Source: Rickettsiales bacterium (lineage in GTDB: Bacteria > Pseudomonadota > Alphaproteobacteria > Rickettsiales > JABIRX01). From it: 64,000 nucleotides of DNA. The stretch lies in contig JABJNB010000018.1 of assembly GCA_018659145.1 (NCBI GenBank), positions 11,039 to 75,038 on the forward strand, given 5' to 3'. Both the position numbers and the translations under genes were made by a program. The notes beneath the pieces are model-generated. The model saw only the letters and a program-made list of their open reading frames with translations, made no database searches and was not told the DNA's origin. Below, piece by piece: positions 373 to 55,962 of the stretch (positions within the stretch are counted from its first letter, which is position 1; the number at the start of each line of letters is the position of its first letter).

Positions 373-1521
373 TTATTTCAAACCCATAGCATAAGCTATA
401 GCTGATTTTTTTGCGCGCTGGCTCTTGCCAAATAATTTTAAACCAAGATTTCGTACAGAATTCATTAACTTATTATCGTTAGAAAATAATTTAACTAATG
501 CGTGAGTGGATCCAAGCATTAGTATATTATCTTTTTTACGAATCTTCTCAAAAGACTTAAGTAAAATATTTGAGCCAATATCCATACCTAGAGTTTTATG
601 TTTTAAGATTAAATGTGTTATTCGCTCAATATCGCGCATTGTTAAATTAAATCCCTGCCCGGCTATGGGATGCATACTATGTAGAGAATCACCGAGGAAG
701 AGCATCCTAGAGCGATAATACTGATTGCTATGACTAACTGAGAGGGGAAAGCTTTTTATTTCAGAAATTATCTCTATGGCGCCATAAGTATCAGATGCTA
801 TTAGATTTAATTCTGCCTCAATATCATCTATATTTGATATAGTGACATTATTTGATTTGGTGTAAACAATAGAAGATTGATTTGGGTCTTTAAGCGGTAA
901 GAATGCAATTGGACCATCGCTTAGAAATTGTTCTAAAGCAAGGTTGTCATGAGATCTTTCGTGTTTCACATTAAATACATGGGATGCTTGCTGATAATCA
1001 TGCTGCAATTCACTTATATTAAATAGTTTCTTTAAACTGGAATATTTTCCATCAGATACTAGTATAAGTTTAGCTTTAATCTCTAAGCTTTTATCTGTTG
1101 TTGCTATCACATAGTCAGATTTAGTTTTAACATCAACAACCTCCTGCTCGCTCATTAAATATTCGTTATCTAAACAATCAATTAAATGGTTTTTAATTAC
1201 AGAATTCGGGATGATGTAGCCCATTGGGGATGCTTTTATCATCTCTTTAGAAAAATATAGATCAGCTTCATTTAGATTGTTGCGAATTAGGATATTATCA
1301 ATTTTAGACACCTGGCTTTCTAATTTGTTCCAAAGGCCTAAAAATTGAAAATTCTGGGAAACCGTGTAATTTATAGCCGTGGTTCTAAGATCAGTTTTGG
1401 CTAGTTTTTGAATTTTATATTTATCTAATACGATATAATCAATGCCTAGTTTTTCTAGGTACTTTGCAGTGATTAGACCAGTAAGGCCAGCGCCTACTAT
1501 GATAACTGAGGTATTTATCAT
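373..1521 (-). CDS. FAD-dependent ubiquinone-biosynthesis hydroxylase (UbiH/UbiF/Coq6 family)
   Basis: N-terminal dinucleotide fold VIIVGAGLTG. LGDSLHSMHPIAGQGFNLTMRDI signature of the UbiH/Coq6 monooxygenases. Confidence 0.8.
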   Translation of the reverse strand: MINTSVIIVGAGLTGLITAKYLEKLGIDYIVLDKYKIQKLAKTDLRTTAINYTVSQNFQFLGLWNKLESQVSKIDNILIRNNLNEADLYFSKEMIKASPMGYIIPNSVIKNHLIDCLDNEYLMSEQEVVDVKTKSDYVIATTDKSLEIKAKLILVSDGKYSSLKKLFNISELQHDYQQASHVFNVKHERSHDNLALEQFLSDGPIAFLPLKDPNQSSIVYTKSNNVTISNIDDIEAELNLIASDTYGAIEIISEIKSFPLSVSHSNQYYRSRMLFLGDSLHSMHPIAGQGFNLTMRDIERITHLILKHKTLGMDIGSNILLKSFEKIRKKDNILMLGSTHALVKLFSNDNKLMNSVRNLGLKLFGKSQRAKKSAIAYAMGLK

Positions 1522-1580
1522 TCTTCTAGTATAAAGAGATTATATTAATAATTAGCTGAATCTATAGGGAAGTCTAGTAA

Positions 1581-1610
1581 AGAAAAAGCCGACTCATAAA
1601 TGAGTCGGCT
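1581..1610 (-). terminator. Rho-independent terminator downstream of parC
   Basis: Hairpin agccgactca-taaa-tgagtcggct (1587..1610). On the minus strand it is followed by a T-run (A-run 1583..1587 on plus). Confidence 0.65.
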
Positions 1611-1668
1611 AAATCAGAGAGAGATATGAGAGAAATCAACTTTTAGAAGAGTTTTTAACAAGAGTCAA

Positions 1669-3885
1669 TCAATAAAACTTATTTTTCTTTGGAAATTTAA
1701 AAGGGACTAAATATCCTTTACTGCCTTTTGATACTAACCATTTTCTAAGATCTTTCTCGATAAAGCTCCGAGAGTTTAATTTGAAATTTAAACCTTCGTC
1801 AAAATTAATAGTGATAATATCAGAAATTGTAGAATCTGTCTGTTTCTGAATATTGACACCCCGTCCTTTTTGCATTTGCGGAATTTGATCTAATTTGATT
1901 ACAACCATTCTGCGAAGAGTATTTACCACAACTAATGAATCATGCCCTTCTACAAACGGCTCAATTCTCATCAAGTTATTATCCTTGCAAGAGAAGATGG
2001 CTCTTCCTGTTTTTTTCATGCTAAGTAAGCTCTCTGAATCAATGATAAATCCTCTACCATTATCACTAACTAAGATATATTTCTGGTCAGCTTTATGTTC
2101 AAAGATGGTAATGACTTTCTCCCCGGGAGCTAAATCAAATAGAAAGTTTAAAGCTTCACCCTCTTTAGCTGACATATCTAGCTTGTAATTTGTCAGCGTA
2201 TAGAATTGGCCTTTGTTAGTTGCGATAATTAATTTATCGGTATTTTGAGTTTCAATAATATATTGCTCGCTATCACCACTTTTATATTTGATTTTCTTTG
2301 TATCAATACCATGGCCCTTAATAGCTTTAATCCAGAAGTTATTTGAAATAGAAATTGTGATAGCTTCTTTTTCAATTAGCTCTTCTTCGTTAATATTTAC
2401 TTCCTCATGGTTTTTAATAAGCTTGGTGCGTCTTTTTGTAATATATTTATGTCTTAAGAATTCTGCCCTAACATCCTCATTTTCTTTAATCAGCTCTTTT
2501 TGCTGAGTTGCTTTACTTGATAAGATTCCGTTTAATGTTTTAGCCTCGGATGACAAGGCTTTTTGTTCTTTTGTAATTTTGATTTCTTCTAACTTCTGTA
2601 GCGCGCGTAATTTTATTTCCAGAATGGCTTCTACTTGTACTTCTGTTAATTCAAACTTGTTGATTAGGAATTGTTTTGCCTCATCTTCAAAGCGAATAAT
2701 TCTAATCACCTCATCCAAATTTAAATAAACAATAATAAAGCCAGCTAATATCTCCAATCTTCTGTTAATTTTAGCTAAACGAAAATTAGATTTCCGAATT
2801 AATATTTCATAGCGGTGTGCTATATATTGCTCTAACACTGCTTTTAAACCGCAAACTCTAGGTACTTGATGCTTGTCTAAAACATTCATATTTAGGCTGT
2901 AATGCATTTCAAGATCAGATTCTTTAAAGAGCTGCTCCATTAATATATTAGCTTCCACATTGCGATTTCTAGGTATAATTACAATACGGATATCTTCACT
3001 AGATTCATCGGCGATTTGCCCCATGCGTATAACTTTTTTACTGCTATATAGATCAGCTAGTTTTTCAAGTAAGCGTGATTTAGATAGCTGGTATGGAATC
3101 TCGGTAATAATAATTTGGTAAGCGCCATGGGGTAATTCTTCAATTTTCCATTTGGCTCTAAGCTTAAAACTTCCCCTACCCGTCTCGTACATCTTTAGGA
3201 AATCTTCTTGTTTATAAATAATCTCGCCACCAGTTGGAAAGTCTGGCGCTGGAATAAGATTTACTAAGTCTTTATTATTAGTTTCTGGTTCTCTTAATAG
3301 TAATTCTGTAGCATCAAGCAATTCTAAAATATTATGTGGAAAGATAGATGTTGCCATACCAACTGCTATACCTTCGCTTCCATTAGCTAGCAAATTTGGA
3401 AATACTGCGGGAAGCAATGCTGGCTCACTATCAGAATCATCATAGGTTGGGTTAAAATCAACAGTGTTTTTGTCGATATCACGCAAAAGCAACATCGCAA
3501 CAAATGTTAGCTTAGCTTCGGTATATCTCATGGCAGCTGGATTATCACCATCTACTGAGCCAAAATTACCTTGGCCGTCAACAAGTGGATAACGTGAAGC
3601 AAATATTTGCGCGAGTCGCACCAGCGCGTCATAGACAGAGCTATCACCATGGGGGTGATATTTACCAATTACATCACCCACGACTCTTGCTGATTTTTTA
3701 TAACCGGAATCAGGGTCCAAATGTAATTTATACATAGCGTATAATATGCGTCTATGCACAGGTTTCAAACCATCTCTTACATCTGGCAATGATCTTGAGG
3801 TAATTGTTGATAAAGCATAGGCTAGATAACGTTCTGATATGGCTGTGCCAAAGTCGATATCAATTGTGTTTAGTAATTTTCCCAT
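1669..3885 (-). CDS. parC: DNA topoisomerase IV subunit A
   Basis: 738 aa. N-terminus [34 protein letters not shown] and catalytic-Tyr region [10 protein letters not shown] are typical of GyrA/ParC. The size fits ParC. Confidence 0.85.
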
Positions 3886-4874: not shown

Positions 4875-5606
4875 TCAAAGCTGATATTCCGGAGAATGGG
4901 TTTGTAACCATTTAGCAGCTAAACGATATTGGGGCATTTTTTTTAAGACCAATGCCCAAAACTCATCCGAATGATTGCGATGTTTTAGATGGCATATCTC
5001 GTGAAGAACTACATACTCTAAGACGGATTTTGGCGCTGCTATCAAGTGCCAGTTTATTTTAATTACTCCACCCTTAGTACAACTGCCCCACATATGGCTC
5101 AGCGCCTCTATTTTTACATCCTGATATTTTAGCCCTAGCATATTGCTATAATATTTAGCCATAAACCTCACATCTACCTTAACCCTATCTTTTAGCCAGA
5201 ATTTTAATGCCATCCCAGCAACGGATTCAACTTTATTTTCATCTATATGCATGGGTATATAAATAGAAAAACCATTTTGATAACTAACCGTAACAGAATC
5301 ACATTTCTCGCGTTTAATGCTTATGCGCATATTACGGCCACGGTAAGCTATTTTCGCACCTGATTGGAGTTTGGTATAATCATTATTCTCAAACCTACTT
5401 AACCAATCACTCATAGCTTCACGCTTGTCATAAACCCAGCGCCGTTTTTTATAGATGAAATCATGAACTTCTGCATCATCATTTATTGCAGGCACAATCA
5501 CCTCAACATCATTGGGCGTAACAATAATGCGCTTTCTAATGGCTAAATCACTATGAGTTATGCGGTATGGTATGTCGGTTTTACCAATGGATAATATTGG
5601 CATCAA
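4875..5606 (-). CDS. DUF45/YgjP-type (M48-like) zinc metallopeptidase
   Basis: C-terminal HExxH motif (LHEICHLKHRNHSDEFW). 4-nt overlap with the hsdR stop. Confidence 0.8.
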   Translation of the reverse strand: MMPILSIGKTDIPYRITHSDLAIRKRIIVTPNDVEVIVPAINDDAEVHDFIYKKRRWVYDKREAMSDWLSRFENNDYTKLQSGAKIAYRGRNMRISIKREKCDSVTVSYQNGFSIYIPMHIDENKVESVAGMALKFWLKDRVKVDVRFMAKYYSNMLGLKYQDVKIEALSHMWGSCTKGGVIKINWHLIAAPKSVLEYVVLHEICHLKHRNHSDEFWALVLKKMPQYRLAAKWLQTHSPEYQL

Positions 5607-8600
5607 GCAATCTTAATATAATGCTTCATTGCATATTCCTCTACTGGTGGTGGTAGCTCTTTAAAATTAGCCAAACCAACCTCATGAGCTTTAAGGCGTA
5701 CTTGCTGCCTGAGCTCCTTTTTTAATTGTTCACGTAAATGCCAACCATTCGGAGCTGTTTGATCTGAGATATATAACAAATTGATCTCAGCAGCAAGATG
5801 TGTTGCCACCTCTATGTTAGAACTACCATCTACGACCTCAATTACCCTACGCAAACCATAAGCTCGCTTATCCAAACCAGAAGTTTTATAACTAGACTCT
5901 TCCTTATCCAGATCTCTCGTCAAATTCTCACATTCTTTTAACGCATCTAAGGCGGAGATTTGCCCTTCTAAAAAACGCTTTAATATTTCCATTACCCGCT
6001 CAGAAAATGGTCCATAGCGAAGTGGATTATCAGCTATTTTTTCTTTTAGAATTTTTTTAAGCTCCGTACCTTTCCGAATAGCAGCCGTGCGAATTTGATC
6101 TTCTGTTTTTTTCTCAATATTAAAATCATCCAAAAACTCTGGATCTGTTAAATGACGTATTTTGCAAAGGGTAGAAATCCCGTTCACATCAAGATGTTCT
6201 TGCAGCATCTGACGTATCTTAGCGCTATAATCACCAAGCTCGAGCGATTCCTTTTGTTCAAAAACTTGCGTTCCCCAATGAATAAACCCTGCCACCCAGC
6301 GTAATATTGCGGTATATTCGAGCACAGATGGATCAGGTGTTAATGCTTCATATGCACGAATAAATAGCTTTGCCTTACGACGAAAACTATACCACACATC
6401 CTCCGAACCTAAGCCTTGAACTAACGCGTCATACTCTTGCTTTAACTCTAACTTACTTACATTACCCTCGCGCCTAATCCCTTTTAAATATGGCTTCAGC
6501 TCAGCATATGCAGCTTTTAACTCAGCGCGATCTACCTCTATATCTTTTAAAGCATTACCAACATCTTCCTTACGATAAGTCTGCAAAGCTTCATCAAGCT
6601 TATTGGTAACACCGATATAATCAACAATCAGACCAAATTGCTTATTACTATTATACACCCTGTTTGTCCTCGCTATAGCTTGAAGCAGACTATGTTCCTT
6701 GAGTGGATTATCCAAATACATCACAGCTTCAATAGGTGCGTCAAAGCCAGTCAAAAGTTTGTTACAGACTATTAAGAAAGACAATGGATGATCTTTCTTG
6801 GTAAAATTATCAATGAGAGTTATCTCCCCCTTTTTATCACGAACATGTTTTTTCAGCTCCGCTCGAAGTGTCGATTTATGATCATCCTCACTTGCATGAC
6901 CATCCGTTTGATTAGTCGAATAAACACATGCACTCATGCTCTTAGCTTTGTCCATGGCATCTTTCTCGCTTAGGCCCTCAGCAATATAATATTCAGTAAT
7001 AACCTTATCCAAAGCTTGTTTATATAACACCACAGCCTCTCTATCAATTGCGACTATTTGTGCTTTAAAACCATCAGGCTGAATATGATTTTTAAAATGT
7101 GTCCAGATATCAAAAGCTATAAGATCAATCCGTTTTTGGTGCTTTGCTAGCTCGGCAATAGTAACGCCACGCTTCTTTAATTGCTCAAGTTTTTCATCAG
7201 ATTCATTCGCAAACCATTGGTCAAAAACTACATCTAATTTCTTTGGATCAATTTGCCATTCCGTTTTGCGGCTCGTATAGCGAATAGGAATTGTTGCCCC
7301 ATCAGCAACCGCGTCATCAATGCCATATTTATCTAAATACCCTTCATCCCCTTCACTAAAATTAGCATATGTATCATGATCTTTTTTCTGTATAGGAGTT
7401 CCTGTAAAGCCAAAAAATTTAGCATCAGGTAAAGTAGCGCGCAAATATGCACCCAAATCTTTTTCTTGCGTGCGATGACATTCATCCACCAATACAACCC
7501 ATTTATCACTACTTGGAATCGGGATCTTCGATCCTTCGAACTTTTGTATTGTAGAGAGCAAAACCAAGCCTTGAGTATTCTGATTTAATTTTTCTTGTAA
7601 TGTCTTTAGTGACTTTACCTGAGTTGGATTAGGAAGACCACATGCGAGAAAAGTTTTAGAAATCTGATTATCCAAATCAACCCTATCAGTTAAGATAAGA
7701 ATGTTGGGGTTATGTTTTATATCATCAGTTAAATGTGTTCTGAGTTTTACAGCCGCATTGACCATGGTTAGTGACTTTCCAGAACCTTGCGTATGCCAAA
7801 TTAAACCACGCTTGCCTTGCTCAAGATATACCCGGTTAAAGATTTTATTTACCGCGCGAAATTGCTGATAACGACAAATTTTCTTTACTGCCCTGCCTTC
7901 ATCCGTTTCAAACACCACAAAATGCGCAAGCAAATCAAGCAAACGTGACGGCTCACATAAGCTATACATCCCCCTTGATAAATCATTACCGAAATCATCT
8001 TTAGCTTTAGGCCAAGGATCTTTCCACTCACCCCAATATTGCGAAGGTGAACTAGTAGCGCCATATAAAACTTTAATGCCGTCAGTTATAATATTGAATA
8101 AATTAGAATAAAATAAACGCGCTATATCCTGCTCATATTGTTTGATCTGATCAAAAGCTTCGCCAGTTTTATCTTTATAAGAAAGTGGGCTTTTGGCCTC
8201 AATCACCACAAGCGGAATACCATTGACATAGAGCACCATATCCGGAATACGGCTTTGCTGCGCTTGCACATAAAGCTGATTGGTTACGGTAAAATTATTA
8301 TTTTCAACATTCTTGAAATCAATAAGATGAATGGTTTTTTTATCACGCTGCCCTGAGATCGTGCGGCTATAATTACCAAGCAAGTTTTTAGTAAATTCCT
8401 TATTATCATTAATATGCAGCAAATCATGATATACCGCCCGCGCTACATCTTCATCCACTTCATTAATGCGCGCAATAGCAGCAATAGCTTCATCACGCAA
8501 AATAACCTGATTCAAACCATCCCGCGCAAGCTCATTATCTTTAGGCTTTAACCATTTCCAACCAAGGGAGATAAGTTCATCTATGCATGGTTTTTCTGCT

Positions 8601-8617
8601 AGTAAATATTCACTCAT
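5603..8617 (-). CDS. hsdR: Type I restriction enzyme, R subunit
   Basis: 1004 aa. Walker A HTQGSGKSLT, DEAD/DECH box VVLVDECHRTQ, SF2 helicase layout and typical HsdR size. Confidence 0.9.
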   Translation of the reverse strand: MSEYLLAEKPCIDELISLGWKWLKPKDNELARDGLNQVILRDEAIAAIARINEVDEDVARAVYHDLLHINDNKEFTKNLLGNYSRTISGQRDKKTIHLIDFKNVENNNFTVTNQLYVQAQQSRIPDMVLYVNGIPLVVIEAKSPLSYKDKTGEAFDQIKQYEQDIARLFYSNLFNIITDGIKVLYGATSSPSQYWGEWKDPWPKAKDDFGNDLSRGMYSLCEPSRLLDLLAHFVVFETDEGRAVKKICRYQQFRAVNKIFNRVYLEQGKRGLIWHTQGSGKSLTMVNAAVKLRTHLTDDIKHNPNILILTDRVDLDNQISKTFLACGLPNPTQVKSLKTLQEKLNQNTQGLVLLSTIQKFEGSKIPIPSSDKWVVLVDECHRTQEKDLGAYLRATLPDAKFFGFTGTPIQKKDHDTYANFSEGDEGYLDKYGIDDAVADGATIPIRYTSRKTEWQIDPKKLDVVFDQWFANESDEKLEQLKKRGVTIAELAKHQKRIDLIAFDIWTHFKNHIQPDGFKAQIVAIDREAVVLYKQALDKVITEYYIAEGLSEKDAMDKAKSMSACVYSTNQTDGHASEDDHKSTLRAELKKHVRDKKGEITLIDNFTKKDHPLSFLIVCNKLLTGFDAPIEAVMYLDNPLKEHSLLQAIARTNRVYNSNKQFGLIVDYIGVTNKLDEALQTYRKEDVGNALKDIEVDRAELKAAYAELKPYLKGIRREGNVSKLELKQEYDALVQGLGSEDVWYSFRRKAKLFIRAYEALTPDPSVLEYTAILRWVAGFIHWGTQVFEQKESLELGDYSAKIRQMLQEHLDVNGISTLCKIRHLTDPEFLDDFNIEKKTEDQIRTAAIRKGTELKKILKEKIADNPLRYGPFSERVMEILKRFLEGQISALDALKECENLTRDLDKEESSYKTSGLDKRAYGLRRVIEVVDGSSNIEVATHLAAEINLLYISDQTAPNGWHLREQLKKELRQQVRLKAHEVGLANFKELPPPVEEYAMKHYIKIA

Positions 8618-43047: not shown

Positions 43048-43806
43048 ATGATACGCGAAAAAACAGCAGCTTTTATTGTAATTGGTAATGAAATCCTCTC
43101 TGGTCGAACGAAAGATAAAAATATTAATTTTTTAACAACTAAGTTGACTGAGATAGGGGTAAATGTAAAAGAAGTTGCAATCATAGAAGATGACGAGAAG
43201 AAAATAATTGAGACCGTGCATAGGTTAAAGGATAATTATGATTACATATTCACATCTGGCGGTATAGGCCCTACTCATGATGATATCACTTCGGCCTCTA
43301 TTGCTAAAGCATTAGGAGTAAAGCTTATTTCGGATCCAAGAGCAGTTAAAATCTTAGAAGACCATTATAGCGGACAAGAATTAAATGAAGCACGTCTTAA
43401 AATGGCAATAATACCAGAGGGAGCTACATTATTAAATAACCCTGTTAGCTCTGCACCTGGTTTTAAAATTCAGAACATATTCGTATATGCTGGGGTTCCA
43501 GTCATAATGCAAGCTATGCTTGAAGCTAGTATGGAATATTTAGAGGGCGGATCTAAAAAACTTAGTCGGACAGTGGAGATATTTTTAACGGAAAGCGTTA
43601 TTGCAACAGAAATGTCTCGGATTCAGGATAAATACAAAGATATTGAAATAGGTAGCTACCCTTTTGCTCGGGATAATAGATTAGGCACAGCTGTTGTTTT
43701 TCGCAGTATTAATCAAGATTCTATCGATCTTGCTCTTGCAGAGTATGTTGAACACCTCCAGTCAAAAAACAGTAATATTGATACATTAAATTTGAATATT
43801 ATGTAG
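43048..43806 (+). CDS. CinA-like molybdopterin-binding (MoCF_BD) domain protein
   Basis: FIVIGNEILSGRTKDKN...FTSGGIGPTHDDIT. The last Met codon and the TAG stop overlap the family C repeat that starts at 43802. Confidence 0.75.
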   Translation: MIREKTAAFIVIGNEILSGRTKDKNINFLTTKLTEIGVNVKEVAIIEDDEKKIIETVHRLKDNYDYIFTSGGIGPTHDDITSASIAKALGVKLISDPRAVKILEDHYSGQELNEARLKMAIIPEGATLLNNPVSSAPGFKIQNIFVYAGVPVIMQAMLEASMEYLEGGSKKLSRTVEIFLTESVIATEMSRIQDKYKDIEIGSYPFARDNRLGTAVVFRSINQDSIDLALAEYVEHLQSKNSNIDTLNLNIM

Positions 43807-43949
43807 AGACGCATCATCATGAGTCTGGTGACCAACTTAAAGTAAATAAGAGCCATGAATCCAAAAACTCCTATCTCCCAAACATACCAACGATAATTAT
43901 ATTTATGTATCTACCACCTCACCCAGATGCAAGATTTTATGTCTCTACA
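43802..43949. mobile_element. Family C MITE-like element (148 bp) with terminal inverted repeat tgtagagac / gtctctaca
   Basis: TIRs at 43802..43810 and 43941..43949. Internal hairpin agacgc-atcatcat-gagtct. Related fragments at 31199..31376 and 36266..36300. Confidence 0.65.
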
Positions 43950-46953: not shown

Positions 46954-46976
46954 CGTAAGGGCGGGGTCCTCCCCCC
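46954..46976. repeat. Half-copy of the family A GC-rich hairpin, immediately after greA (possible terminator)
   Basis: cgtaagggcggggtcctcccccc followed by ttctttc. Confidence 0.5.
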
Positions 46977-47040
46977 TTCTTTCAAACACAAGGTCTCTCT
47001 TATATATTATTGCAACTAAGGAAGTTAAAAAGGTTAAATT

Positions 47041-49800
47041 ATGCCTGCAAAAAACCAAACAAAACAACGAGAAGCAAGGTCTTCTGGTTTAGCAGCAGAA
47101 GAGCCACAGGACCCATTATTGCTAGAAGAATATCAAGCTCTTGAAGAATTAGAAATATCTATTTCCAACGAGGGAGATGCTAAAAAACTTTATAAATTTG
47201 TAGAAAAATCTATAAGAGAAAACTCTGGTAAAAAAGTTGTTCTTAAACTTAAACTTAATTCAAACAAATCTCTTGCCAAACAAGATGAACAGCAGCGTAG
47301 GCTTGCTGAAAAGGTAAGAGAGGCAATCAAATTAGCAATTAAGCATGAAAAAATTGAAGTTATATGTTCATTGATAGCAACCAAATTAGAAAATCAAACA
47401 CGATATAGGGAAGGGATCCGCTTATTGCTAAAAACAATTAATCCAGATTATCAGATGGTCTGCATAGCAGCCAAGACAAACAACCCACAAATTACAGACT
47501 TTCTCTTACAAGAAGGGGTTAGTCAGACGGTTGTTAATGAAGCTCTTAAGCAGCAAAACATCAGAATGCTTAAATTTCTTTTAAACTCTGGGGCAAGTTT
47601 AGATGGTGGAGAGATATTGGAGGCTATTTTTTTAGGGGATATAAAAACTATAAATTTTCTTTTAGAGGAATCTCTTCTCTCACCTCGAGATCTATTCTCT
47701 GGCTTAGAGCAGGCCTTTTTCCGCCAGAAAGATAGGGTTAGAAAATTACTTGAAACCAAACTTAAGGAAAATAATTTTAAACTTCTAAAACAAGCCATGA
47801 GTCTACCTGTAAGGATTTATGATTTAGATAGCTGCTTGGAATCCTACGCAGAAGAATCTGCACAAGAGAATACAGAAATAATTGAATTTTTAAAACATTT
47901 TAAAACGTTATATTCAGATTTACTAGCTGCGGCAGAATCAGGAAATTGCCCCAAGATTATGGAGTTAGGAGGTCAAGGATTAAACTATAACTTAGTCTGC
48001 GATGATGACTTAAGTTTATTAGATAAATCCGTAATTCCAGGAAATATTGCAGCTATAGAATTGCTATTAACATTAGGCCTAAAACCTAGTTCTACTACAT
48101 TAGTTAAAGCGATTAGTTCTGGAGAAGCAGAAATTGTTCACTTAATTTTAGGGAGATTAGATGAATCTTTAAGCTCTGAGATATTATGTAAGGCTATTGA
48201 TTCTAAAAACCTAGATATCGTTGCAATGATTCTAAGTAAAGGAGTTGATACTAGCGGCTTTATAGATGTGTTGCTCCATGCCGCTAAATCTAAAAATTTA
48301 AGAATGGTTCAGCTTCTTAAAGAGAAAGGGCTAAAAATTAGAGAATGTAATTTTTCAGGTGGAACGTTAAATAAAGAAGTTATGCTAGGTAATATTGAGA
48401 TTGTTGATTACCTTCTAGAGAATGGAGCTAGTCCTAATAGAATGATAAGCTATAATTATACTGATGCAGATTATGGACTAAACTATGTTGCTAGATTAGG
48501 TCGGCTAGACCTTGTCCGACTACTTTTTAAATATAAGGCGAAGACTCACGCAAATACATTAAGCTGTGGGATTGAGTCAGGTAGAATAATACTTGTTAGG
48601 TTTTTGCTAGATAATATAACAGCTTCTCAATACCTTGGTAATTCATTTTTAGTAAATCAAGCGACTAGCATGGGTAATTATATGATGGTTGAATTGCTGA
48701 TAGAGCATGGTCTAAAGCCTGATATAGGTTCATTAAATAGTGCTATAAAATTAGGCAGAATAGATCTCGTTACGTTGTTTCTAAAGCATGATATACCACT
48801 TCAAACCAAGGATGCTTTCAATTCAATAAATATAGCCATTCAATATAAAAAACTAAATATGCTTAAGTTTCTCCTGAGAAATGGTGCCGAGCCTAATGAA
48901 TATACTTTAAATGAAGTTGTTAGATCAGAAAATATAGAAATAGCAGGCTTAGTTAGAGAGCTTGATGTTCAAGCTAATAATAGCGAGGTAGATGACGTTA
49001 CAGCATTCAGAGGTATGGCGTCTAATACTCTAAATATAGCGATTAGATTAGGAAATCATGTAATGCAAATGATAGCTGTGGAAAAAGGAGCTAAGCCTAA
49101 TTCTCATACATTTAATGTAGTAGCTTCTATGGGGCGCTTAGATTTGGTAAAATATTATCGTAATATAGAAGGTTCAATTAATCATCAGACTCTGGACTAT
49201 GCTATTAAATCTGGCAATTCTGAAGTTATTTCTTATGTCATAAGCAATGGAGCCAAGCCCATCTGTAAAGCAACGCCTTCTTGGGATTCTTGGGACAACA
49301 CATTAAATAGAGCTATTTCCACAGGTAATTCCAGAATTATAGATTTGGTTTTATTAAGTGGGATTAGTACAGAGAATATAACTAATTCTGGCCTTAGTCC
49401 TCTTCAGCAAAATAAATTTCTAGAAAGACAGAGGTTTTTACTAGAAGAGAGAGATATTAGAGCATTAAATCTCTTAAGTAAGGAGGGTTTAGAAGGACAT
49501 CTAGCAGATAACCCAGTCAATGAAGTTAGAGAATGGCTGTCCGATACTAGAGAGAGTACTCAAAGAGAAGTTCTATCAGCAAGTTGGCCAGCAATCTCCA
49601 AACGAGCAGAATTATTAAGTATTGCTGCAGATCCTTCAGTTAGTGGTTTACGTCCTAATCTGGCTGCAGCAGATGAAACCTCACTACAAAGATTTCCTGA
49701 TAGCACAAAAACTACACAGGCAGAAGAAAGGGTAAGATCTCCTTTTTTGGGTCCCCCTGATAGAGCTTTTAAAGAATCAACTGGTCAATCTAGATTTTGA
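47041..49800 (+). CDS. Ankyrin-repeat protein (919 aa), candidate secreted effector
   Basis: Many ANK-like units (e.g. GNIEIVDYLLENGASPN, GNYMMVELLIEHGLKPD, GRIDLVTLFLKHDIP, LNMLKFLLRNGAEPN). Non-repeat acidic N-terminus and Pro/Ser/Arg-rich C-terminal tail. Confidence 0.85.
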   Translation: MPAKNQTKQREARSSGLAAEEPQDPLLLEEYQALEELEISISNEGDAKKLYKFVEKSIRENSGKKVVLKLKLNSNKSLAKQDEQQRRLAEKVREAIKLAIKHEKIEVICSLIATKLENQTRYREGIRLLLKTINPDYQMVCIAAKTNNPQITDFLLQEGVSQTVVNEALKQQNIRMLKFLLNSGASLDGGEILEAIFLGDIKTINFLLEESLLSPRDLFSGLEQAFFRQKDRVRKLLETKLKENNFKLLKQAMSLPVRIYDLDSCLESYAEESAQENTEIIEFLKHFKTLYSDLLAAAESGNCPKIMELGGQGLNYNLVCDDDLSLLDKSVIPGNIAAIELLLTLGLKPSSTTLVKAISSGEAEIVHLILGRLDESLSSEILCKAIDSKNLDIVAMILSKGVDTSGFIDVLLHAAKSKNLRMVQLLKEKGLKIRECNFSGGTLNKEVMLGNIEIVDYLLENGASPNRMISYNYTDADYGLNYVARLGRLDLVRLLFKYKAKTHANTLSCGIESGRIILVRFLLDNITASQYLGNSFLVNQATSMGNYMMVELLIEHGLKPDIGSLNSAIKLGRIDLVTLFLKHDIPLQTKDAFNSINIAIQYKKLNMLKFLLRNGAEPNEYTLNEVVRSENIEIAGLVRELDVQANNSEVDDVTAFRGMASNTLNIAIRLGNHVMQMIAVEKGAKPNSHTFNVVASMGRLDLVKYYRNIEGSINHQTLDYAIKSGNSEVISYVISNGAKPICKATPSWDSWDNTLNRAISTGNSRIIDLVLLSGISTENITNSGLSPLQQNKFLERQRFLLEERDIRALNLLSKEGLEGHLADNPVNEVREWLSDTRESTQREVLSASWPAISKRAELLSIAADPSVSGLRPNLAAADETSLQRFPDSTKTTQAEERVRSPFLGPPDRAFKESTGQSRF

Positions 49801-49914: not shown

Positions 49915-50165
49915 CATTACTGCCTAGAGTTAAAAACTATTAATAAAAATCCTGCGCTTTTTTACAAATCTGACCAATATATAAAATTGCGTAGGGGCGG
50001 GGTCCTCCCGCCCTTGGTAGACCGATCTCGGTGTTTCTGGGCGGGAGGACCTCGCCCCTACGATTCTTTGTTGAAAAAAAATTAAATTCATTTTTCTTGT
50101 ACGCCTAACCCTTTTTATATAAGGCTTTTTATCGCATAATTCTGCTTTAACTCTAGGCAGTAATG
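49915..50165. mobile_element. Family A MITE-like element (251 bp) with perfect 20-bp terminal inverted repeats and a central 73-bp GC-rich palindrome
   Basis: TIR cattactgcctagagttaaa at 49915..49934, with its reverse complement at 50146..50165. Core cgtaggggcggggtcctcccgccc...gggcgggaggacctcgcccctacg at 49990..50062. Inverted copy at 22842..23080. Confidence 0.8.
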
Positions 50166-53472: not shown

Positions 53473-53559
53473 AGTTCAATTTAAAATAATCACTTAGTAT
53501 GGATTATATAAATAGATTTTTAATTATTACAAATTAATTTAGCCCCGCCCCTTATTTTT

Positions 53560-54429
53560 TTACTTTAAATCTGTAAGTACAAATATCTCTACCCTTCTAT
53601 TTACTCTATCAGCATATCCTTGTTCACTTTTATTATCCTGCTTTGTTTCTCCATAGGCATTTTCTTTAAGAATATTTTCTCTTTTTACACCTAGCTCAAT
53701 TAGTTTGTCTCGAGTCGACATAACACGCTTACGTGATAATGCTATATTATTATCAACCGCACCTAGTTTGTCGGTATGACCTTCAATTACGAGTTTATAT
53801 TTAGGTAACCTCTTTAGATAATATGCCAACTTATTAAGTTCTTTGATGGCTGTAATATCTAAGTTTGATTTACTCTGATCAAAATATATAGTATATAAAT
53901 TCTTCTCAGTTAATTTCTCAGCTTTAAGCTGTTCATCTCGAAGAATCTTTATCGACTTCTTTAACTGCCTATAGCCTTCGATAAATTCTTTGCGGAATCT
54001 AAGAGTTGTTTTTTCATTGGGATTTTCTTCTGTTTGCTCAACCCAACTATCATATAAAATTTGTAGACTCGCGGCTTCTAAGGCAAATTTAACTTTTATT
54101 TCATCAGTTTGTAATTTAGAAAACTCCAGGCGATAGAATAATAATTCATCTAAGTAATCAGCATCTTTAATATTGCGCTCTGTCGGATCTTCCAACCCCA
54201 CACTAATATTTCGTTTAGCTCTTAGGCCCTTTTTAGCAAAGTGATCTGAAGCTTGCCAATCATATTTTTTCTCTTCCCATATAGCTAGATTCCTATAACC
54301 AACCACTAAGGCGTCATGATAATTACTTTTTAGATCAGTAGATTGACTTTCTAAAAGCTCTCTATTCGTGCATGATGCCTGCAATATGATTATCAGAGAG
54401 ATAAAAGTCGTATAAAAGTTAAATTTCAT
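53560..54429 (-). CDS. OmpA-family lipoprotein
   Basis: Lipobox LQASC. C-terminal OmpA domain IEGHTDKLGAVDNNIALSRKRVMSTRDKLIELGV. Confidence 0.8.
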   Translation of the reverse strand: MKFNFYTTFISLIIILQASCTNRELLESQSTDLKSNYHDALVVGYRNLAIWEEKKYDWQASDHFAKKGLRAKRNISVGLEDPTERNIKDADYLDELLFYRLEFSKLQTDEIKVKFALEAASLQILYDSWVEQTEENPNEKTTLRFRKEFIEGYRQLKKSIKILRDEQLKAEKLTEKNLYTIYFDQSKSNLDITAIKELNKLAYYLKRLPKYKLVIEGHTDKLGAVDNNIALSRKRVMSTRDKLIELGVKRENILKENAYGETKQDNKSEQGYADRVNRRVEIFVLTDLK

Positions 54430-54486
54430 GGCAATTAAATTCTTTTAAAATATAGGTTAACTTAAGTTATTATAATTTAAGATCCC

Positions 54487-55098
54487 GTGAATTTAGCATC
54501 ATATACACAAAAAGGCAAAGTAATTATTGGGATTGATGAGGCTGGAAGAGGTCCATGGGCAGGACCGGTTGTGGCTAGTTCATTATTATTTAAATCTCCA
54601 GATGTAAGTCGTGATTATTATTTGCAGATTAGAGATTCAAAAAAACTCTCGGAAAAAAAACGTGAGGAACTTTATTACGCTATCATTGATGATCCAAATA
54701 TTGAGTATCATTATAGCTTTGTAGCAAATGATATTATCGATGAGATAAACATCCTTCAGGCAACTAAGCAAGCGATGTTAAATAGTCTAAATAAGCATAA
54801 AGAAAAACATGATTTAGTACTGATAGACGGCAATCAATTGATAAATTATACAAAAGCACCAATGGAGGCAGTAATTGGCGGCGATGATAAGGTTCTCTCT
54901 ATAGCAGCCGCATCAATCATAGCCAAATATATGCGCGATGAGTATATGAGGGAGATTGACCAAGAATATCCACAATATGGTTTCGCCAAGCATAAAGGTT
55001 ACGGCACTAAACTTCACCAAGAAGCATTAAAACAATATGGCCCCTGTGAATATCACAGAATGAGCTTCAAACCAGTCAAAGCTGTGATGGGAATTTAG
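54487..55098 (+). CDS. rnhB: Ribonuclease HII
   Basis: GIDEAGRGPWAGPVVA and DSKKLS motifs. GTG start. Confidence 0.9.
   Translation: MNLASYTQKGKVIIGIDEAGRGPWAGPVVASSLLFKSPDVSRDYYLQIRDSKKLSEKKREELYYAIIDDPNIEYHYSFVANDIIDEINILQATKQAMLNSLNKHKEKHDLVLIDGNQLINYTKAPMEAVIGGDDKVLSIAAASIIAKYMRDEYMREIDQEYPQYGFAKHKGYGTKLHQEALKQYGPCEYHRMSFKPVKAVMGI
55035..55079 (+). repeat. Direct repeat copy 1 (functional 3' end of rnhB)
   Basis: 45 nt, 43/45 identical to 55735..55779, exactly 700 bp apart. Confidence 0.85.
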
Positions 55099-55125
55099 TT
55101 TTTCCATATTAGGATTACTACTGCA

Positions 55126-55629
55126 TCACAAATCGACATGCTGAATACATTCTAAACTATCCCTTAAATCTAAATATTCTTGCCAAGTAGTATCAGGACT
55201 TTGCTTTTTATGGAAGCTACTACTCTCTTGTGTAATCACATTATTACGCCCTTCTGACTTCCATTCTCTTGCACCTAATAGGGAGCTTGCTTCACTATCA
55301 AAATGGGGGTATAAATTATCTGTATAAACATCATTCTCGCGCAGAATCTTATTTTCTTCTAAGAAGGCCTTTCCTTTGGATGCCATTTCTGTTTTTATAT
55401 CTGAATATACAGGATAACTTAATGAGGATGATATCAATACAGAGATCACGGGAGCTAATAATGTGCCAACACCAAGTGATAGTAGTGACATCACTATTAA
55501 AGTTTGTAATAGTGTAAATAAGGTAATAGTTAAGATTATTGGCACCGCCTCTCTCTGGTAACGGTATCTTCTATATAACTTTTCATCCTCTTTTGTCTGA
55601 CGTACTTTCTCTTTAATATGCTTTTTCAT
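55126..55629 (-). CDS. Hypothetical membrane protein (167 aa) with bilobed hydrophobic domain (Inc-like)
   Basis: Basic N-terminus, then a hydrophobic stretch of about 45 aa (VPIILTITLFTLLQTLIVMSLLSLGVGTLLAPVISVLISSSL), then a hydrophilic C-terminal half. Lies inside the 700-bp insertion. Confidence 0.55.
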   Translation of the reverse strand: MKKHIKEKVRQTKEDEKLYRRYRYQREAVPIILTITLFTLLQTLIVMSLLSLGVGTLLAPVISVLISSSLSYPVYSDIKTEMASKGKAFLEENKILRENDVYTDNLYPHFDSEASSLLGAREWKSEGRNNVITQESSSFHKKQSPDTTWQEYLDLRDSLECIQHVDL

Positions 55630-55734
55630 ATCATTCTAAACTCTCTCATTTTCTAAAACTGAGCGCACTATAGAAGTGAAAAATTATAGTTCAAGAAAAA
55701 TTGAATTATAATTTAAAGAATCTAGCTTTGATGC

Positions 55735-55779
55735 ATATGGCCCCTATGAATATCACAGAATGAGCTTTAAACCAGTCAA
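55735..55779 (+). repeat. Direct repeat copy 2 (displaced rnhB 3' end remnant)
   Basis: atatggcccctatgaatatcacagaatgagctttaaaccagtcaa. It would encode ...YGPYEYHRMSFKPVKV followed by a stop. Confidence 0.85.
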
Positions 55780-55789
55780 GGTATAATTT

Positions 55790-55862
55790 CGTATGGGCTG
55801 GATCCTCCCGCCCATGACAGACCGAACTCGATGCTTCCGGGCACAAGGACCCCGCCCCTACG
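55790..55862. repeat. Family A 73-bp GC-rich palindromic core (solo copy)
   Basis: cgtatgggctggatcctcccgcccatgacagaccgaactcgatgcttccgggcacaaggaccccgcccctacg. Same orientation as 49990..50062. Confidence 0.75.
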
Positions 55863-55962
55863 TTATGTTATATTTGCCCTAATGCCAATTGATGGGATTG
55901 TTGATAATATACGCTTGAATTATTCATCAAATTAATCTGTTGAGTAATCTCATACCCAGCCC

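Follow-up and report, generated by a model that had tools for sequence, protein, structure and literature searches.

Within a 64 kb stretch of DNA (hereafter the window) from a marine metagenome-assembled genome (MAG), uncultured and labelled 'Rickettsiales bacterium', the ribonuclease gene rnhB and the aminopeptidase gene pepP are held apart by a segment that carries a single open reading frame (ORF), and the last 45 nucleotides of conserved rnhB coding sequence recur on the far side of that segment. rnhB (54487..55098, plus strand) encodes an intact RNase HII of 203 amino acids (aa; Pfam RNase_HII, E 8e-40) with orthologues of 61-75% identity. Convergent with it, pepP (55963..57684, minus strand) encodes a Xaa-Pro aminopeptidase of the M24 family (Pfam Peptidase_M24, E 3.5e-48, plus Creatinase_N and M24_C); a look-up of the exact PepP sequence returned no database record. 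Read from left to right, the locus comprises rnhB with the first copy of the repeat (R1) and a tail reading AVMGI-stop, a 27-nt spacer, ORF167 on the minus strand, 105 nt of AT-rich DNA, the second copy of the repeat (R2), a palindromic repeat termed family A, 91 nt of further sequence, half of a family A terminus and finally pepP.

R1 (55035..55079) and R2 (55735..55779), both read on the plus strand, are identical at 43 of 45 positions and spaced by exactly 700 nt. The similarity starts and ends sharply on either side, and the chance expectation for such a pair in 64 kb is ~2e-12. R1 is the functional, gene-proximal copy and would be attL-like; R2, the relic of the rnhB 3' end, would be attR-like. 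The gene currently ends ...FKPVKAVMGI-stop, with the differing five-codon tail AVMGI-stop (55080-55098, plus strand) leaving it intact. Translated in the rnhB frame, R2 ends ...YGPYEYHRMSFKPVKV-stop; together with the GGTATAA that follows, the relic (55735..55786) reads ...GPYEYHRMSFKPVKV-stop and closes in frame by its own stop (TAA, 55784-55786). These positions and both gene ends agree with a first-pass annotation made from the sequence, as do the single opposite-strand ORF of 167 aa and the family A core that follows the second copy (55790..55862), of which the window holds other copies. That annotation missed what the mismatches do. R2 differs from R1 by a G>A change, which turns a Cys codon into Tyr (TGT to TAT), and by a C>T change; the affected Cys is nearly invariant in the RnhB family, and its codon is retained in R1.

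The left half of R1 has the ancestral Cys codon, which is replaced by TAT in R2. The right half of R2 and the bases next to it (TTT...AAGG) match the closest orthologue (locus L096), where R1 has TTC...AAAG, which places R2 2 nt nearer to that orthologue than R1. This is just what would be expected of hybrid attL and attR sites if the crossover fell within the 21-nt core that is identical in both. The repeat folds no better than shuffled sequence (z -1.2), and a metagenome scan with its pattern matched one contig of the same species. Tandem duplication of a 700-bp unit was considered and rejected, as neither the 655 nt after R2 nor any other part of the window resembles the insert, and ORF167 is unrelated to PepP.

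Comparison with relatives indicates that the DNA between the two genes arrived in this lineage. RnhB homologues in a protein collection reach 75% (P0003), 69% (P0004) and 61-63% identity (P0005-P0010), the rest lying at or below 55%; in a genome-collection scan with RnhB as query, the relatives among the matches listed had at most 52% identity. We compared the loci of L096 (RnhB 75% identical), L095 (69%) and L089 (GCA_038120515.1; 61%). In L089, rnhB and pepP overlap tail-to-tail by 4 nt, and in L096 the pepP stop lies ~20 nt beyond the rnhB stop. Since the gap in these relatives is -4 to ~20 nt and the two stops are 864 bp apart here, the intervening DNA is a lineage-specific insertion. The gene order of L089 is that of the window except for ORF167: glnA-like, thioredoxin, response regulator, histidine kinase, OmpA-family, rnhB, pepP, ilvD, SLT_2, DPBB_1, AAA_26 and AlaDh. 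In L095, what comes after the OmpA orthologue and rnhB is not pepP but two ORFs on the same strand (1237-3648), one of 539 aa and one of more than 227 aa, with neither a Pfam match nor a counterpart in the window. Because L095 bears different DNA after rnhB, the rnhB 3' junction is a recurrent insertion site, struck independently at least twice. Family A was not found at any relative's locus. The first-pass annotation had been prepared to give up the insertion if all relatives shared one arrangement and the ORF was not conserved; instead, the relatives differ in arrangement and, as described below, ORF167 is conserved.

The rnhB-insert-pepP structure is real and not an artefact of assembly, because independent metagenome contigs cross the region at 99.96-100% identity. 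A chimeric join within the MAG, made during assembly or binning, would account for the many metagenome contigs that end within the region (at 55161/2, ~55186, 55410 and 55419), but a single SPAdes contig (L001/L007) covers 53558-56050 at 99.96% identity to the window and contigs from two further assemblies (L002 and L003) cover 55041-55946 at 100%, so that this explanation is effectively refuted. All RnhB variants of at least 99% identity end in AVMGI, and their contigs carry the start of the insert. As a separate observation, contig ends recur within the insertion across independent metagenome assemblies and different assemblers (55041, 55161-55162, ~55186, 55410, 55419 and 55945-55946), and three contigs terminate at exactly 55419. 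The shared coordinates point to population-level branch points. Further strain-variable points are ~53558, where L001 departs from the window on the left just beyond the ompA stop, and ~51423, left of which L005 departs; both contigs are otherwise 99.9% identical to the window.

The segment between the repeats (55080..55734, 655 bp) consists of the new rnhB tail, the 27-nt spacer, ORF167 and the 105 nt upstream of ORF167. Nothing similar to it lies elsewhere in the window, and inverted repeats at its ends are no better than chance, their score being matched in 246 of 2000 shuffles. Its sole ORF, ORF167 (55126..55629, minus strand), is annotated as a hypothetical protein under the locus tag HON23_01895 and is predicted to encode a small two-pass membrane protein of 167 aa. 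A word-indexed search with ORF167 returned ORF167 alone. An exhaustive HMMER search of 1.84 billion representative proteins added five small homologues: P0127, which is 46% identical and shares the C-terminal motif WxxYLDxR, and P0128, P0129, P0131 and P0132, which are 25-31% identical. Because these five distant homologues share its motifs, ORF167 is a conserved, real gene, belonging to a six-member uncharacterised family, and the idea that it is a pure ORFan or a non-coding ORF was rejected. A sigma-70-like promoter candidate lies inside the insert (55667..55694, minus strand; TTGAAC, 16 nt, TATAGT); it is a consensus match, and such sites are no more numerous than in shuffled sequence.

The family alignment has a basic N-terminus with the motif DExxYRxxRY, two hydrophobic helices, the motif SYPVYxxIKT right after helix 2 and a variable, poorly predicted tail. 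In ORF167 the hydrophobic stretch spans residues ~28-72, with the two helices arranged around the turn SLGVG, and thereby bears out the bilobed hydrophobic domain of about 45 aa described in the first-pass annotation. The AlphaFold2 model, a check which that annotation had proposed, is a helical hairpin (H2-51, H58-106) with a mean pLDDT of 66. Foldseek found no match to this model in the PDB (best E 0.78), and nothing scored above threshold in Pfam, PADLOC, PHROGs or NCBIfam. Pfam DUF4229, a family of small two-transmembrane proteins, matches weakly over the hairpin (E 0.0054, 17.2 bits), but the score falls short of the 27-bit gathering threshold and the match leaves out the flanking motifs, so ORF167 is not a member. 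Its N-terminal 27 residues carry a net charge of ~+6. Because the N-terminus is so strongly basic, the positive-inside rule suggests an N-in/C-in hairpin of the bacterial inner membrane, and we use this presumed topology below.

The homologues occur in varied surroundings, namely between ORFs without known family (L098), convergent with rnhA (L099), beside an IS1 fragment (L100) and within an ars/pst-like cluster (L103). In L099 (6001-6882), P0128 converges with rnhA, the gene for RNase HI, and 15 nt separate the two stops, which resembles the rnhB arrangement here. A conserved link between the family and RNase H genes was nevertheless rejected, as the other homologues are not convergent with such genes, and the convergence is probably coincidental. 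Neither long flanking repeats nor R-like sequence were found around the homologues. A phage or plasmid origin of ORF167 was also dismissed, there being no match in viral contigs, phage records or plasmid records. L095 and L098 come from the same sample, and their contigs do not overlap.

The first-pass annotation likened the protein to chlamydial Inc proteins or other vacuole-membrane effectors. If an intracellular bacterium secreted ORF167 as an Inc-like effector of host membranes, the hydrophobic domain of the protein would be explained: like Inc proteins, ORF167 has two transmembrane lobes around a short turn within ~45 aa, inside the ~40-60 aa of the Inc criterion, followed by a hydrophilic tail. 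The Rickettsiales label of the MAG would fit as well, as would a 919-aa ankyrin-repeat protein encoded in the window, since ankyrin-repeat proteins are common in intracellular bacteria. Against this, ORF167 resembles no Inc, effector or defence family in sequence and matches no known fold, and its N-terminal charge suggests N-in/C-in in the bacterial membrane, with the conserved motifs flanking the hairpin on the side predicted to face the bacterial cytoplasm. One homologue sits in an ars/pst-type cluster and others among housekeeping genes, and no secretion system turned up, type III included, although no search was aimed at one. The resemblance to Inc proteins is topological only, the effector label is unsupported, and we regard a role as a secreted effector as very unlikely. 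The ankyrin-repeat protein itself (47041-49800) has a faint Shigella OspC-like match, and a 635-aa ORF without Pfam matches takes the place of its gene in L089.

ORF167 also has a close variant in a second setting. On a 4201-nt contig of JGI metagenome 3300072015, 412 nt downstream of a gene for a 1038-aa type I HsdR, P0122 encodes 172 aa, of which aa 1-150 are identical to ORF167 and the remaining 22 form an unrelated tail. The body of ORF167 is present in at least two genomic contexts; of the further copies of the cassette that the first-pass annotation had proposed to look for, this partial one was found in another metagenome contig and none in the rest of the window. Because P0127 has the same tail as ORF167, the window's version is the complete one. 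P0122 was also considered as a frameshifted ORF167 and rejected, since its tail is encoded nowhere in the window (other frames read). ORF167 and P0122 diverge at ~55177-55180, close to the end of the 5203-nt rnhB contig from the same JGI sample, which stops 88 nt past the rnhB stop (~55186). The window itself encodes a type I restriction HsdR of 1004 aa at 5603-8617.

On the pepP side, R2 is followed within 10 nt by family A (55790..55862), a GC-rich, 73-nt palindromic repeat that is REPIN-like in form. The copy at this junction is degenerate, with 3 mismatches per arm; the family sequence is CGTAGGGGCGGGGTCCTCCCGCCC...GGGCGGGAGGACCCCGCCCCTACG, and it sits after gene ends. Other full copies lie at 22945-23017 and 49990-50062, and solitary half copies at 46954-46977, 61135-61158 and 61651-61674. 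A minus-strand RNA of 55790-55862 is predicted to form a hairpin of -43.8 kcal/mol (z -5.6). With REP/REPIN-type repeats, family A has in common its several copies, its GC-rich palindromic form (~73 nt), its position behind gene ends, its solitary halves and its strong predicted hairpin. It is unlike them in that a family A terminus provides the stop codon of pepP, and no RAYT-type transposase turned up, although no search was aimed at one. The copy at 49990 is nested in a bigger inverted repeat, CTGCCTAGAGTTAAAA (49920-49935 / 50145-50160), one arm of which recurs at 23060. A second repeat family, GTAGAGACGCATCATCATGCGTCTGATTA, forms a short hairpin just past gene ends at 31282-31310, 36267-36295 and 43803-43831, with longer copies at 31280-31361 and 43801-43882.

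The 91 nt beside the family A terminus (55863..55953, minus strand) may be a relic of the pepP 3' end. The first ~25 nt of this stretch are pepP-end-like, GKYNIT-stop as compared with the real KGHNIT-stop, and its translation reads ..NPINWH-stop-GKYNIT-stop against the real ..NEITWIKGHNIT-stop. A 14-nt half copy of the family A terminus (ACCCAGCCCCTACG, 55954..55967) follows and provides the last codon of pepP and its TAG stop; the pepP tails of relatives stop at the homologous position. The pair 55849-55869 / 55954-55974, the D2 repeat, is identical at 19 of 21 positions. Once the family A portion is removed, the pepP-end similarity is weak (p ~0.05), and a duplication of the end on the pepP side is probable but not established. 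Together, R2, family A and the pepP-like relic have the look of an older junction where the two gene ends had only the palindrome between them.

How, then, did the insert arrive? Our preferred reading, held tentatively and at a little under an even chance, is that R1 and R2 arose, as attL- and attR-like sites, from a single recombination across the rnhB 3' end, and that they enclose an integrative islet that has decayed or is non-autonomous. Here, rnhB and pepP would initially have been tail-to-tail neighbours, probably with family A already between them and giving rnhB a short end, ...KV-stop. Incoming DNA bearing a 45-bp look-alike of the rnhB end would have recombined with the chromosome inside those 45 bp. 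R1, the hybrid and attL-like copy, would then complete rnhB with the new tail AVMGI-stop; next would come the 655 bp of inserted DNA, with one gene and its own candidate promoter; and R2 would remain as an attR-like, non-coding relic that is decaying. The cargo would be a small hairpin protein of the inner membrane, with its basic N-terminus and hydrophilic C-tail predicted to be cytoplasmic. Because no recombinase gene remains, the unit would be decayed or non-autonomous, and would depend for any movement on a recombinase provided in trans. This account is supported by the sharp repeat, the absence of the insert in L089 and L096 and the hybrid-like mismatches, and also by the conservation of ORF167 and its plausible promoter (a consensus match). 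We infer that both repeats stem from one event and that the event was site-specific. Where integration, Campbell recombination or target duplication yields an arrangement A-R-X-R-B, the DNA beyond the distal repeat is the original flank; which of R1 and R2 is the original copy we likewise infer.

Among known elements, the closest parallel is the cis-mobilizable element (CIME), which retains its att sites and no longer has genes for integration and transfer (PMC5704250). As in a CIME, direct repeats flank the insert, the target gene contributes its 3' end as one of them and stays intact, no integration or transfer genes lie inside, and the unit is absent from the orthologous site of relatives. 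It differs in its size, 655 bp and a single gene against the kilobases of described CIMEs, and no cognate integrase or related autonomous element is known for it from the 64 kb of genome seen. An autonomous integrative element is excluded, as the sole ORF encodes a membrane protein; the integrase-less state is CIME-like. A limited literature search did not find rnhB as an att site. The insert is unlike elements of the insertion sequence (IS) or miniature inverted-repeat transposable element (MITE) type, having no terminal inverted repeats and a duplication of 45 bp as compared with 2-14 bp. Nor does it resemble an integron gene cassette, since R is not attC-like (z -1.2) and the ends have no inverted repeat; a promoterless ORF would be expected there, while ORF167 is preceded by 105 nt of its own that include a promoter-like site.

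The window contains a second structure of this general kind. At 31517-31586, 1772 bp away from the 3' half of a tRNA-Arg(ACG) gene (33309-33385, minus strand), stands a repeat of that half plus 20 nt (70 nt, 86% identity). The two copies enclose one gene, for a PLP enzyme of Cys/Met metabolism (31801-33072), and no integrase. Like the rnhB locus, this islet (31517-33385) has a duplicated gene 3' end around a single cargo gene; the rnhB case differs in its protein-coding target, its shorter repeat (45 vs 70 nt) and its younger age (96% vs 86% identity). Att-type integration followed by loss of the recombinase therefore has a precedent in this genome.

Several observations weigh against the islet. 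L089 and L096 do lack the insert, as the empty-site comparison proposed in the first-pass annotation would have it, but both lack family A as well; they are not exact empty sites, insertion in a single step is unproven, and contigs of the species itself yielded neither an empty site nor a circular junction. Described integrative elements are far larger than 655 bp, and no integrase was found in the insert or in the ~5 kb of syntenic housekeeping genes on each side. The first-pass annotation had compared the locus to integrative elements that target and regenerate gene 3' ends; the insertion, the duplicated end and the intact rnhB are borne out, while the comparison with integrative elements, without an integrase, is plausible but unproven. 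Both differences of R2 from R1 are changes from G:C to A:T, as decay in an AT-rich genome would also yield, and the three diagnostic positions could equally stem from ordinary mutation. The AVMGI tail could be native, because it matches the RnhB tails of relatives in length and in a hydrophobic residue at +2 (4-5 residues; the 75% relative is also 203 aa long). The insert resembles the host in composition (GC 0.336 vs 0.354 for the window; GC at third codon positions 0.29, like the neighbouring genes), and the junction in the hsdR-adjacent context lies at ~55177-55180 and not at R, which ill fits a precise element with fixed ends. A precise element explains these last two observations less well than does general recombination involving a resident gene.

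This leads to a close rival, which we consider possible and only somewhat less probable than the islet: that homology-driven or illegitimate recombination, without a site-specific recombinase, moved a resident gene to this site. Integration of a circular or linear ORF167 fragment from the same lineage could have been Campbell-style, via a short look-alike of the rnhB end, or could have gone through homology-facilitated illegitimate recombination, and the duplicated end would be seen because selection retained only outcomes with both convergent genes intact. Besides composition and the copy beside hsdR, whose identity over aa 1-150 breaks off within the ORF, this relocation would account for family members at non-syntenic chromosomal sites of related bacteria without flanking repeats, for the lack of an integrase and terminal inverted repeats, for the different insertion at the same junction in L095 and for a possible second duplication on the pepP side, where the interior is too small for an element. 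It sits less well with the repeat itself: 45 bp is short for RecA-dependent recombination, the sharp edges and hybrid-like mismatches fit att sites, and relocation gives no clear reason why a foreign fragment should carry an rnhB end.

If the AVMGI-stop tail is native, R2 need not mark an insertion boundary at all. In this scenario, ORF167 arrived otherwise, and the DNA later broke at family A, with its predicted hairpin; repair of the break then copied 45-47 nt from the rnhB end nearby, perhaps with a piece of the pepP end on the other side too, so that R2 would be a secondary, templated patch. The proximity of R2 to family A, with the pepP-end-like stretch abutting the other arm, would then be explained, as would the family-like length and +2 residue of RnhB and the Cys to Tyr change, which is expected of a copy that never functioned. 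However, two independent and correctly oriented patches would be required, the similarity on the pepP side is weak, and R2 is nearer to the orthologue than R1 at TTT and AAGG, which is unexpected for a recent copy of R1. We know of no established bacterial precedent for templated patches of 45 nt, and rate this course of events as rather unlikely. A bolder extension of the islet reading is more doubtful still. Here, ORF167 and its promoter would form a minimal integrase-less cassette that is still mobile in nature via a recombinase in trans, targeting and regenerating gene 3' ends, and the rnhB islet, the tRNA-Arg islet and the hsdR-adjacent copy would belong to one shuffling system of marine Rickettsiales-like bacteria.

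Taken together, we regard the locus as a real but fairly ordinary insertion scar, a very small case of a known kind, in an uncultured lineage; as it stands, the finding is modest and descriptive. It shows how a tight convergent junction can gain DNA without gene loss, as a gene end is duplicated and one of the copies decays, and it flags the rnhB/pepP junction as a recurrently variable site in an uncultured marine lineage. If a cassette of this kind is indeed mobile without a recombinase of its own, this would bear on the exchange of single genes among small, streamlined genomes. For the six-member family of uncharacterised membrane proteins to which ORF167 belongs, the analysis provides a first anatomy, with an N-terminal motif, a two-helix hairpin and a post-hairpin motif.

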